IMG/VR virus record: IMGVR_UViG_2671181056_000005
Location: 1 to 23,040 of that record
Source of the DNA: a virus
Taxonomy: Duplodnaviria > Heunggongvirae > Uroviricota > Caudoviricetes
Strand: one strand, 5' to 3'
Length of the DNA stretch: 23,040 nucleotides
Part shown: piece after piece, positions 6,816 to 8,717 of the stretch
How positions within the stretch are numbered: position 1 is the stretch's first letter
How the letters are laid out: each line of letters opens with the position of its first letter
Made by a program: the position numbers and the translations under genes
The notes under the pieces: model-generated
The model's database searches: none
Told to the model about the DNA's origin: nothing
What the model saw: only the letters and a program-made list of their open reading frames with translations

Positions 6816-7169
6816 TCAGCCATTCCATCGTGATTTTTTTGATCTGGAATCGATATGCGTAAAGGTTTTATATTTGCCTAAGCCGTATTGAGTAGGATAT
6901 TTCCCATCAAGATAAGCATGGACAATATCAGGGGAGACACCCTTGACCACAATGTCAGCCGCACGACCTCGAACGTGATAGCTGTTGGTTGCACCGCCTA
7001 CATTCTTGTTATGAGTTGGGCAACGGTTCCCACTGTTAATAATTACTGGTTTCCCGAAGTGTTCGCGTACATCCTCAAGAATTACCAGTAATTCAGCGTC
7101 GATTGTATCATAATCACATTTTCCGCATTTACATTTAAATTCCTTGCGAGAAAAATGCTTACTTAACAT
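6816..7169 (-). CDS. Peptidase M15-type zinc metallopeptidase (LAS fold), 117 aa; candidate cell-wall hydrolase/endolysin
   Basis: SYHVRGRAAD fits SxHxxGxAxD (H-x6-D zinc ligands) with a second His in FTHID; N-terminal FKCKCGKC; GGGGG RBS overlaps the upstream stop. Confidence 0.7.
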   Translation of the reverse strand: MLSKHFSRKEFKCKCGKCDYDTIDAELLVILEDVREHFGKPVIINSGNRCPTHNKNVGGATNSYHVRGRAADIVVKGVSPDIVHAYLDGKYPTQYGLGKYKTFTHIDSRSKKSRWNG

Positions 7170-7178
7170 ATTACCCCC

Positions 7179-7526
7179 TTAGATCATTTCGAAGATATAA
7201 CCAATAAAGCGCATACCCTTGATATAATAAGGAGCAGTGCCTACACACACCGCGCGTGCATCACCCAGACAGTTAAAGCTATAAGGATTAACTACATCGA
7301 CTTCTTGCCCTACACGAAAACGATATTTAGGACGTTTAGCCAATGTAGCGACACAAAACACGGTCCCTTTTTCATGATCGCGGATACATTCTTTATATTG
7401 TTTATGTTTAACTCTCTTCGCCTCAAAATCATGTGTCATGGATTCTGGGCTAATGCCATTGATAAAAATACCGGAAAGCTGGTCGACCGGATAAGTAGGA
7501 AATTCAGTGAAAATATTTTTAGCCAT
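7179..7526 (-). CDS. Hypothetical protein, 115 aa
   Basis: ORF with GGGGG RBS 6 nt upstream; tightly packed in operon. Confidence 0.55.
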   Translation of the reverse strand: MAKNIFTEFPTYPVDQLSGIFINGISPESMTHDFEAKRVKHKQYKECIRDHEKGTVFCVATLAKRPKYRFRVGQEVDVVNPYSFNCLGDARAVCVGTAPYYIKGMRFIGYIFEMI

Positions 7527-7531
7527 GTTAT

Positions 7532-7557
7532 ACCCCCATAAGATTCTATGAGGGTAT
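7532..7557 (-). other. RNA hairpin overlapping the RBS of the 115-aa gene
   Basis: Minus-strand RNA UACCCUCAUA / UAUGGGGGUA forms a 10-bp stem (one G-U) with 6-nt loop; no U-tract follows. Confidence 0.3.
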
Positions 7558-7564
7558 TTATGGA

Positions 7565-8248
7565 TTAAACGTATCTCATGCGCGATTTAATGTGCTTATT
7601 AATGTTCTTAAGCATCATTTCCTCGTTGCTTTCCCACGATCCTAGCGTCGAATAACGAGTAGAAATTTTATCCGACTTAACGGCAACAATTCGCTTACTC
7701 TGTTTCTGTGTGCGTTTCTCTAAGCGACGTTTTGCCACCGCCGATCCATTCTTAGCGCGTTTGGTTCTGGATTTCTTAGGCTTGTACTTCTTCATGATAA
7801 AAGTCCCTTCCTTATTCTCTACCTTGATGAAGTTGCCATTTTCGATGTTACGCATCATCTTACCGCCTTTGATGGCCTTAATGTTCCCGTGGGCGTCTAA
7901 GACCTTACCGTTAGCGATTGGCACTAGCTTATTGATTTTGCCCCCATCGAAATAGTGTTTCAGATAGTCATCCTGACTGCCGATCTTCTTGTCCTTATCC
8001 CTTGCGCCCTTGATGAAGATTTGGTGTCTCGTCCCTGAACGGTTCTTGTAGTTGGTATTACCTACAGCTTGTTGAGTCCATCGAGTAGGTCTATCAACAT
8101 TCTTGTTAATCTTCTTCTGGAGTGCTCTGGAAGCAAAGATCGCCCCTTCCCCTATCGCCTTTTCGAATGTATCGGTTGCTTTATCAGTCCATTGGCGTAA
8201 CGCTTTCTTAGTCCTTAGAGCGTTTCGTTTATTGGTACTGGTTGCCAT
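7565..8248 (-). CDS. Highly basic Lys/Arg-rich protein, 227 aa, function unknown
   Basis: ORF composition; start overlaps the stop of the upstream small ORF (TAACATG). Confidence 0.55.
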   Translation of the reverse strand: MATSTNKRNALRTKKALRQWTDKATDTFEKAIGEGAIFASRALQKKINKNVDRPTRWTQQAVGNTNYKNRSGTRHQIFIKGARDKDKKIGSQDDYLKHYFDGGKINKLVPIANGKVLDAHGNIKAIKGGKMMRNIENGNFIKVENKEGTFIMKKYKPKKSRTKRAKNGSAVAKRRLEKRTQKQSKRIVAVKSDKISTRYSTLGSWESNEEMMLKNINKHIKSRMRYV

Positions 8249-8249
8249 G

Positions 8250-8420
8250 TTAGCCCCCTAATAACGAAAAGACCCCCGCCAGTGTCCTGAGCAATTGTTC
8301 ATCCACGGTCATAGCCGGGAGTTCAAGCCCAAAGGACGTTAGCAGAGGTCTAATTGCTACGTTATAAGTGAGGGCGATAATCAAGAGATAACCAAAATAT
8401 TTCTTAAGTTTATTCTTCAT
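8250..8420 (-). CDS. Small membrane protein, 56 aa (MKNKLKKYFGYLLIIALTYNVAI...)
   Basis: Hand-translated ORF below the track cut-off; GGGG RBS 7 nt upstream; basic N-terminus then hydrophobic helix. Confidence 0.35.
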   Translation of the reverse strand: MKNKLKKYFGYLLIIALTYNVAIRPLLTSFGLELPAMTVDEQLLRTLAGVFSLLGG

Positions 8421-8438
8421 ATATTCACCCCTTTATTA

Positions 8439-8717
8439 TTATTTTTGTTTGAGTATGTCGAGAACTTGGTCAAATTTGGCGTCCATCGCAACCACTTTCT
8501 TCTCTATACCGTGTAGTGTTTGTTCCATGCGATAAACTCTCTCGGCGATCTGGTCGTGGTTACTTTGCATTGTTTCAAACTTCTGATTAAACAATGCATC
8601 ATTGGACTCTAATTTCGACAATCTATTTTCTGTTGCTAATTGATTTCGGTGAAGTCTCCATAATCCACCGCAAATTAAGGCGATAACACCGATACCGCCA
8701 TATATAATTTCAGTCAT
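8439..8717 (-). CDS. Membrane-anchored coiled-coil protein, 92 aa
   Basis: N-terminal hydrophobic helix IIYGGIGVIALICGGLW followed by heptad-like charged region. Confidence 0.55.
   Translation of the reverse strand: MTEIIYGGIGVIALICGGLWRLHRNQLATENRLSKLESNDALFNQKFETMQSNHDQIAERVYRMEQTLHGIEKKVVAMDAKFDQVLDILKQK

Follow-up and report, generated by a model that had tools for sequence, protein, structure and literature searches.

A late gene unit behind the tail-tip gene of an enterobacterial prophage joins a presumed M15A endolysin to a rare conserved four-gene module

Introduction

Five closely spaced minus-strand genes follow the J-like tail-tip gene in IMG/VR virus record IMGVR_UViG_2671181056_000005 (Caudoviricetes; positions 1 to 23,040, a stretch of 23,040 nucleotides (nt) referred to here as the window), and they raise the question of whether such a unit serves host lysis as a whole or combines several purposes. 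The initial annotation had proposed either a lysis cassette or a superinfection-exclusion/ejection module. The window is the right part of a temperate siphovirus-type prophage and does not belong to a free phage. As set out below, the last of the five genes encodes a peptidase that is best read as the endolysin of this phage, and the four genes before it form a conserved module of their own. We regard it as about an even bet that the five genes constitute a composite late unit, comprising an endolysin, holin candidates and two probable virion-assembly proteins, and not a single-purpose cassette.

The five genes of the unit

From first to last, the unit comprises:

8439..8717, minus strand: gene of the 92-amino-acid (aa) protein TMcc, a membrane-anchored coiled-coil protein, directly 3' of the J-like gene
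8250..8420, minus strand: gene of a 56-aa small membrane protein, phrog_2024 family, candidate holin
7565..8248, minus strand: gene of the 227-aa protein X, highly basic, phrog_1924
7179..7526, minus strand: gene of the 115-aa protein Y, directly 3' of X in enterobacterial-type lineages
6816..7169, minus strand: gene of a 117-aa M15A (Peptidase_M15_3) zinc peptidase, presumed prophage endolysin

The J-like gene, which encodes 1258 aa, ends at 8821. Between the genes of the unit, taken in order from the 92-aa to the 117-aa gene, lie gaps of 18, 1, 38 and 9 nt, and each of the five start codons is preceded by a strong Shine-Dalgarno sequence of the GGGGG type. Open reading frames (ORFs), gaps and Shine-Dalgarno sequences thus agree with the layout first described, including the 56-aa gene that the ORF track lacks; this gene has its own Shine-Dalgarno sequence and is conserved in three genera. 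The order of all five genes is common to prophages of E. coli, Salmonella and Providencia. Compared with an E. coli relative whose protein set is 57-81% identical, the ratio of nonsynonymous to synonymous substitution rates (dN/dS) is 0.08-0.21 for the five genes and 0.12-0.21 for the 56-aa gene, a range read where synonymous sites are unsaturated, most of the Salmonella and Providencia comparisons being saturated. Judging from these ratios, the five genes are under purifying selection, and their conservation goes far beyond chance.

The last gene encodes an M15A peptidase

The 117-aa protein is an M15A peptidase, a new member of a known family. It matches the Peptidase_M15_3 profile PF08291 over its full length (98.3 bits, cut-off 23.2, E=3.5e-28) and the endolysin family phrog_894 (E=6.5e-46), so that the two profile checks bear out a family assignment originally made from the motif SxHxxGxAxD. 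This motif reads SYHVRGRAAD at residues 63-72; H65, D72 and H105 are the expected zinc ligands, the last of them within F103-T-H105, and the protein aligns to the active-site region of 1lbu. The roles of these residues (SxHxxGxAxD, His/Asp/His zinc triad, (W/F)xH) follow PMC13461873, where LysPM1, a 116-aa single-domain Peptidase_M15_3 endolysin, was lytic and Zn-dependent by experiment.

Its closest annotated relatives are SP6/K1E-like podophage endolysins (from phages of Proteus, Pectobacterium, Klebsiella, Citrobacter, Salmonella and Escherichia), to which it is 60-64% identical. Together with LysPM1 of Proteus phage Homer, these M15A enzymes resemble the 117-aa protein in size (116-117 aa), in their single PF08291 domain, in the SxHxxGxAxD motif, the His/Asp/His triad and the FxH sequence, and in the lack of a signal sequence. 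Unlike theirs, the gene in the window lies in a temperate siphovirus-type prophage and follows X and Y rather than a holin gene. The 117-aa protein has no hydrophobic segment and no signal or signal-anchor-release sequence, so it would need a holin to reach its substrate.

Close homologues and context together suggest that this peptidase is best read as the endolysin of the phage. Lysis genes recognisable by family were not found elsewhere in the complete related E. coli prophage L3Cip3: its left-arm, neck and tail proteins, scanned against PHROGs and Pfam, gave no match to another wall hydrolase or to a holin or spanin family. In more distant relatives, namely Escherichia phage DCP80 and three IMG/VR contigs (L017, L019, L020), a T4-type lysozyme gene (PF00959) takes the place of the M15 gene directly after Y, an apparent non-orthologous replacement in the same slot that supports the endolysin reading. 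The order of tail genes, unit and serine integrase also recurs in separate lineages (L017, L058, L061).

Four genes form a separable module

Loci with members of the X family were recovered and annotated with a reference protein set; they carry L numbers here. Their order is constant: J-like gene, TMcc (91-153 aa), an optional T4-type endonuclease VII, the small membrane protein, X (175-239 aa) and Y (99-119 aa). Even in more distant lineages, where X, Y and the small membrane protein have counterparts of about 30-40% identity, these three keep their order. The gene after Y differs between lineages:

Window type (E. coli, Salmonella, Providencia): M15 peptidase gene
DCP80, L017, L019, L020: T4-type lysozyme gene
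L058, L061: opposite-strand genes, then integrase
L056: opposite-strand gene, then contig end
L064/L018, L057, L060, L062: G and T chaperone genes, then the tape-measure gene, except on the short L060 contig

Because the gene after Y varies in this way, the endolysin is only a lineage-specific neighbour of a separable conserved module consisting of TMcc, the small membrane protein, X and Y. No endolysin gene follows Y in L056, L058, L061, L064/L018, L057, L060 and L062, which argues against a single lysis cassette. On the four contigs where the module lies between J and the G/T and tape-measure genes, the X proteins are only 58-83% identical among themselves, and the arrangement must for this reason be old and maintained. 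L019 and L020 have the genes of the small membrane protein, X, Y and lysozyme in inverted orientation, with TMcc remaining beside J.

The tail genes of L064/L018, L057, L060 and L062 have the unusual order tube, DUF6950, J, module, G, T, tape measure, which is conserved across these diverged contigs; no distal-tail or hub homologue was detected after the tape-measure gene of this lineage. The gene of a T4 gp49-type endonuclease VII lies between the TMcc and small membrane protein genes in the DCP80-like lineages (L001 11355-11822; L018, L056-L058, L060-L062) and nearby on the opposite strand in L019 and L020. L001 is PQ671644.1, the record of Escherichia phage DCP80, a 141-kb 'complete genome' labelled Straboviridae/Gaprivervirus, for which a literature search found no paper. 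Its positions 11605-36451 hold a full siphovirus-type tail module akin to that of the prophage (tube, G/T, tape measure, distal tail protein, hub, DUF6950, J, module, lysozyme, Nu1-like terS) that runs straight into T4-type early genes (motA, ndd); either the chimera is natural or two phages were mis-assembled into one record.

The small membrane proteins as holin candidates

Both membrane proteins have the topology that was first ascribed to them. TMcc has a single N-terminal hydrophobic segment, and the remainder matches coiled-coil families weakly; the protein matches phrog_12015 with E=2.8e-4, and its architecture is conserved while its sequence diverges. The 56-aa protein consists of a basic N-terminus and a hydrophobic helix, with one clear hydrophobic segment and a weaker C-terminal one, its homologues scoring two. 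It matches phrog_2024 with E=0.011 (4e-4 for the DCP80 homologue), and the pattern of its family is a basic N-terminus, a helix with YN..v.P, then G..LP...(D/E)E and a second hydrophobic stretch. Without a Cys, the 56-aa protein is not a lipoprotein; neither it nor TMcc has a lipobox or a cleavable signal peptide, and both resemble inner-membrane anchors. As small proteins with at least one transmembrane domain, both have the general form of a holin, and the 56-aa protein in particular is a plausible small holin.

The layout of TMcc, an N-terminal transmembrane domain followed by a coiled coil, also fits an i-spanin, whose coiled coil is periplasmic; from its charge distribution, the C-terminus of TMcc may be cytoplasmic. 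Its match to the Rz-like spanin family phrog_739 is weak (E=0.077 for the window protein, 0.001 for the DCP80 homologue), and a search in all frames and with all start codons found no credible lipobox ORF for an o-spanin partner in the window, the complete L3Cip3 prophage or the DCP80 region. TMcc was therefore rejected as part of a canonical two-component spanin.

Of the proposed lysis cassette, then, the last gene stands, by virtue of its M15A match, its podophage endolysin kin, its being the sole wall hydrolase found in L3Cip3, its location at the late-gene end by the integrase and the lysozyme swap. The idea of a single five-gene unit for lysis is not supported: the module persists where no endolysin adjoins it and precedes tail genes on four contigs, X falls into phrog_1924, whose distant members precede terS-terL and do not accompany lysis genes, no holin family is matched and no o-spanin partner was found.

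Proteins X and Y

Protein X is as rich in Lys and Arg as first noted (57 residues, 25% of the protein; isoelectric point 10.7), but the K/R-rich stretch is a variable insertion that most homologues lack. Neither X nor Y has a signal sequence or a transmembrane domain. X is rare, with six clusters in a collection of 5.8 billion sequences and 12 matches among 1.84 billion representatives in an exhaustive profile search. The X family has motifs in common with phrog_1924, a family labelled 'minor tail protein', and its profile is matched by 11 of the 16 X proteins compared (best E 2.4e-33). X of the window matches at E=1.1e-3 and gp44 of Rhodobacter phage RcCronus at 2.8e-57; a literature search found no functional data for gp44 or any other member. 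X of the window has no match in Pfam, and none to a helix-turn-helix, HNH or other DNA-binding or nuclease family. The X and Y family profiles found nothing below E=0.2 among PDB sequences, and NCBIfam has no match for four of the five proteins of the unit.

Distant members of the X family occur in a different setting. In RcCronus, the X gene (gp44) is the last before the cohesive end and terS; in Synechococcus phage S-CBS1, the X homologue gp43 precedes terL; on four IMG/VR contigs, a distant X directly precedes TerL and a 191-194-aa protein that is presumably TerS. None of these loci has Y or a lysin close to X, and RcCronus and S-CBS1 lack the membrane proteins as well. At the usual place of a tail-completion or terminator gene, RcCronus has none annotated, and X lies at its genome end.

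Gene context and family label together make it most likely that X and Y help to assemble or complete the virion (its tail or neck). In every enterobacterial lineage, X is co-transcribed with tail genes, which speaks for a role in morphogenesis, as do membership of phrog_1924, the contigs with the module between J and G/T, and the gene gap in RcCronus. On those four contigs, X and Y stand directly before G, T and the tape-measure gene, an order only partly like lambda Z-U-V-G-T-H. X of the window lies after J, and not between the head-closure and the tail-tube/terminator genes.

A likeness of X to lambda gpZ was also considered and rejected. There are faint traces of it in the family (one distant member matches PF06763 with E=0.11, and one matches phrog_27, 'tail completion or Neck1', with 0.0055).

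A possible course of lysis and its precedents

The following scheme would account for the unit. Late in induction, a timing that we infer, transcription of the five genes would come from read-through or start in the conserved AT-rich leader downstream of the J terminator, and the soluble 13-kDa M15A peptidase would build up in the cytoplasm. The inner membrane would then be permeabilised by a holin, for which the 56-aa protein, the 92-aa protein or both are the most likely candidates; the 92-aa protein could instead be a partner or regulator of the holin. The peptidase would thereby reach the peptidoglycan and cut its peptide stems. No spanin would be involved, so that the outer membrane would be disrupted in a spanin-independent way or by an unrecognised component. 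X and Y would be co-expressed with the lysis genes for the assembly or completion of the tail or neck, not for lysis.

Parts of this arrangement have parallels. Lambda S-R-Rz likewise combines small membrane protein(s) with a soluble endolysin, and it sits upstream of cos-Nu1-A, as the unit in the circularised prophage would sit upstream of Nu1-like terS. Unlike in lambda, X and Y stand between the membrane proteins and the endolysin, the unit directly follows the tail genes, and there is no spanin pair, lipobox ORF or holin family match. The late operon of P2 and 186 offers a precedent for lysis genes mixed with probable tail-completion-type genes in one late unit: there, the lysis genes Y, K and lysA-C adjoin the tail-completion genes R and S. 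P2 has the spanins LysB and LysC; its gene order differs from that of the window, and no sequence similarity to P2 proteins was detected.

In PBSX of Bacillus, the genes XhlA-XhlB-XlyA encode a membrane-anchored coiled coil, a small holin and an endolysin after the tail genes. The window repeats this scheme, with an anchored coiled coil of about 90 aa, a small hydrophobic protein and a later endolysin behind the tail genes of a temperate element. It differs in that the anchor of TMcc is N-terminal (C-terminal in XhlA), in two extra genes, in the Gram-negative host and in the XhlA match, which is below threshold (PF10779 against TMcc: E=0.24, 12.1 bits, cut-off 34.7). In the sequence tests that could be run, the unit matched none of the lambda, P2 and PBSX types. 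New in this locus is a lysis function at the late-gene end that is interleaved with a rare conserved module, spanins being absent.

If the composite reading is true, this prophage family lyses Enterobacteriaceae by means of an ordinary M15A endolysin and new holin candidates, with no spanins. Such prophages reach about 1% of complete E. coli genomes and also Salmonella and Providencia. Functions for the module would fill four 'hypothetical protein' annotations and could add a new holin family, and those of X and Y could add a displaced tail-completion pair or a spanin-independent lysis component. For phage biology, the gain would be incremental and not a conceptual surprise.

Weighing of the readings

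Several observations count against the composite reading. On the side of the holin, neither membrane protein, nor its homologues in DCP80 and Providencia, matches a holin family in Pfam, PHROGs or NCBIfam; the positive control of this search, RcCronus gp04, matched Phage_holin_10. A charged C-terminal tail, as holins typically have, is missing from the 56-aa protein, two genes (X and Y) intervene between the holin candidates and the endolysin gene, and L3Cip3 encodes, beside its Nu1-like terS, a 94-aa protein with three hydrophobic segments that is a competing holin candidate or else an exclusion candidate. On the side of X and Y, the label 'minor tail protein' of phrog_1924 is an annotation for which the literature search gave no experimental support. 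The comparison of X with lambda gpZ by hhalign was negative for gpZ alone and gave a probability of 0.15% for a 16-sequence gpZ alignment; the AlphaFold2 model of X has a predicted local distance difference test (pLDDT) value of 43 and is unusable, and the model of Y is weak. The position of distant X genes upstream of terS-terL fits a packaging or regulatory role equally well. Finally, the complete prophage used for the whole-element checks, L3Cip3, is a close relative and not the window's own genome.

The same position of X upstream of terS in distant phages allows the reading that X, alone or together with Y, binds DNA as a packaging accessory or regulates the late genes. Its proper place would then be where the late or packaging region begins, and it would stand near lysis genes only because the attachment site splits the circular genome at this point. 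RcCronus, S-CBS1 and the four IMG/VR contigs, with X directly upstream of terS-terL at the replication/packaging junction, are joined here by DCP80 with its order X, Y, lysozyme, Nu1-like terS, by the circularised prophage, in which the unit would precede Nu1-like terS, by endonuclease VII, a DNA-branch resolvase whose gene interrupts the module in several lineages, and by the very basic character of X. RcCronus and S-CBS1 differ from the window in that X lies just upstream of terS/terL without Y, membrane proteins or an adjacent lysin, and what they have in common with it is the phrog_1924 profile and motifs of the X family (RcCronus gp44, S-CBS1 gp43). Against this role, X matches no DNA-binding or nuclease family, and all enterobacterial lineages transcribe it together with the tail genes, at their end; on four contigs, its position between J and the tape-measure genes is remote from the terminase genes. 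We consider the role unlikely, if worth keeping in mind.

Slightly less likely, in our estimate, is that all five proteins act in lysis, as a holin/antiholin pair, the M15 endolysin, and X and Y as regulators or spanin substitutes. The genes are tightly coupled in one terminator-bounded unit, and an endolysin gene follows Y in two lineages and is of two different types; neither the window nor the related prophage has a spanin or lipoprotein ORF, so another agent must breach the outer membrane, and X is polycationic. This reading is contradicted by the module that persists without an adjacent endolysin and can sit among tail genes, by the distant X genes that adjoin terS-terL with neither Y nor a lysin nearby, by the K/R-rich stretch being a variable insertion, and by the lack of a signal sequence or transmembrane domain in X and Y.

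We rate just as low the proposal that X, Y and perhaps the membrane proteins are virion or ejection proteins for DNA delivery, or block incoming DNA in superinfection exclusion, with the M15 peptidase as a virion-associated entry lysin and not the endolysin. It would explain why the module always follows the receptor-binding J-like gene, with TMcc strictly linked to J, and it suits the 'minor tail protein' label of X; the upstream terminator and the conserved AT-rich leader would permit independent expression. However, the M15 peptidase is a free-standing 13-kDa enzyme with podophage endolysins as its nearest kin, free-standing lysozymes take its place in relatives, and no other endolysin was found in the related prophage. 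Exclusion proteins of the Cor/Llp type carry a lipoprotein or outer-membrane signal, which the 92-aa and 56-aa proteins lack. For the four genes before the peptidase gene, the exclusion or ejection role named in the initial annotation is neither borne out nor contradicted.

Equally doubtful to us is the idea that the four-gene module is an undescribed envelope-acting system of spanin-less enterobacterial siphophages. It could take two forms, either a new holin and a spanin-independent device for outer-membrane disruption with an adjacent endolysin, or a J-tied device for DNA delivery or exclusion at the inner membrane.

That the genes are chance ORFs, or dispensable cargo (morons) apart from the phage life cycle, is effectively refuted by the order kept in three genera, the distant homologues, the dN/dS values and the strong Shine-Dalgarno sequence of every gene, even if the interval between late genes and integrase is a cargo hotspot in this prophage family (uvsW, uvsW.1, uvsY, GIY-YIG).

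Expression signals of the unit

The composite unit is framed and subdivided by the following elements:

8769..8802, minus strand: intrinsic terminator hairpin (15 pairs and a T-run) after the J-like tail-tip gene
8718..8768, minus strand: leader and putative promoter region of the unit, with a conserved CTAAATAAT block at 8760-8752, an AT-rich -10-like TATAAAAATA and the Shine-Dalgarno sequence GGGGG
7523..7563, minus strand: stable RNA hairpin separating X from Y, in which the Shine-Dalgarno sequence of Y is base-paired
6770..6794, no strand assigned: bidirectional terminator that separates the M15 gene from convergent uvsW.1

The terminator that the initial annotation placed between the gpJ-like gene and the unit was recovered as the 15-bp hairpin at 8802-8769 with its T-run. 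It is kept in four relatives (E. coli, Salmonella, Providencia) with compensatory changes in the stem, and this conservation indicates that it is a real structural element. The leader block behind it is conserved across genera. No sigma-70 consensus promoter was called on the minus strand of the unit, and the AT-rich leader is a possible promoter. The T4-like cargo described below prompted the idea of a T4 late promoter, which was rejected: the window has a single TATAAATA, with 1.6 occurrences expected, and the leader motif CTAAATAAT is not enriched within the window. The hairpin between X and Y folds with -17.8 kcal/mol (z = -3.95; none of 200 shuffles folds as well); no T-run follows it, hence it is no typical terminator, and it may control the translation of Y or RNA processing.

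Host prophage and distribution

Protein X of the window is encoded, in its exact 227-aa form, on 23 contigs, on which the tail genes are followed by the five-gene unit, a large serine recombinase and then chromosomal csgG/F/E or ydcR/ydcS. Among 5,426 complete E. coli genomes, 55 contain the cassette at 90-99% identity, every copy being chromosomal. A DNA search of the cassette against phage genomes gave 125 nt of the endolysin as its sole match, and a scan with Y found only near-identical E. coli prophages among viral contigs and one stray contig among genome contigs.

The E. coli L3Cip3 element, about 39 kb long and inserted in hicB, has a cassette 98.5% identical to that of the window. From attL onward, it carries Nu1-like terS, a few regulators, gpA-type terL, portal, a 668-aa capsid protein and an FII-like protein, followed by fibres, tail tube, G/T chaperones, tape measure, distal tail protein, hub, DUF6950 and the J-like gene; its right end up to attR holds the five-gene unit, cargo (uvsW, GIY-YIG gene) and the integrase. 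Nu1-like terS lies at the extreme left end, about 6 kb from gpA-type terL (L009 25986-26921, 32924-34831), and regulator-like genes occupy both strands between them. In the related prophage L008, two proteins match the major-tail-protein family phrog_158 (37110-37943, 30710-31180), the first a 277-aa protein encoded upstream of the fibres and the second the 156-aa tube protein; the L064 lineage has a 583-aa version of the phrog_158-type protein.

Cargo, fibre and T4-like neighbours

Of greater interest than the unit itself may be the prophage around it, which carries T4-derived uvsW/uvsW.1 genes, a gp37-like fibre and a gp38-like adhesin. The neighbouring genes of the window are:

1297-2991, plus strand: large serine recombinase with Resolvase, Recombinase and Zn-ribbon domains
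3065-4249, minus strand: 394-aa protein, whose L3Cip3 homologue is annotated as GIY-YIG nuclease family
4405-4974, plus strand: 189-aa protein with a faint CapR match, beside uvsW
4965-6771, plus strand: T4-type uvsW and uvsW.1 genes, here in a temperate siphovirus-type prophage
17491-17997, minus strand: gp38-like adhesin gene (PF21721, phrog_1121)
18702-21914, minus strand: gene of a 1070-aa gp37-like distal subunit of a long tail fibre
21913-22893, plus strand: IS5-type transposase ORF, 326 aa, abutting the 5' end of the fibre ORF

The 3' end of uvsW and uvsW.1 (about 6430-6742) are 99% identical in nucleotide sequence to Krischvirus RB49-like phages, and the rest of uvsW is about 76% identical, a pattern that implies recent recombination with a virulent T4-like phage. 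The cargo block varies among prophage copies: uvsW.1 is absent from L002 and L004, genes of a UvsY-domain and a Phage-tail_1 (PF09097) protein stand in its place in L010 and L013, and in L003 and L005-L007 a 65-aa ORF and an 85-aa secreted protein replace the block.

The adhesin and fibre genes flank the tail-tube gene inside the siphovirus tail operon. The fibre gene has about 78% nucleotide identity to RB49 gene 37 over about 2.5 kb, and a receptor-binding module appears to be common to the prophage and T4-like phages. The fibre is probably disrupted in the prophage copy of the window, where it adjoins the transposase ORF, whose N-terminus we take to be that of InsH; in the L3Cip3 copy, an IS3 element lies inside the fibre gene instead.

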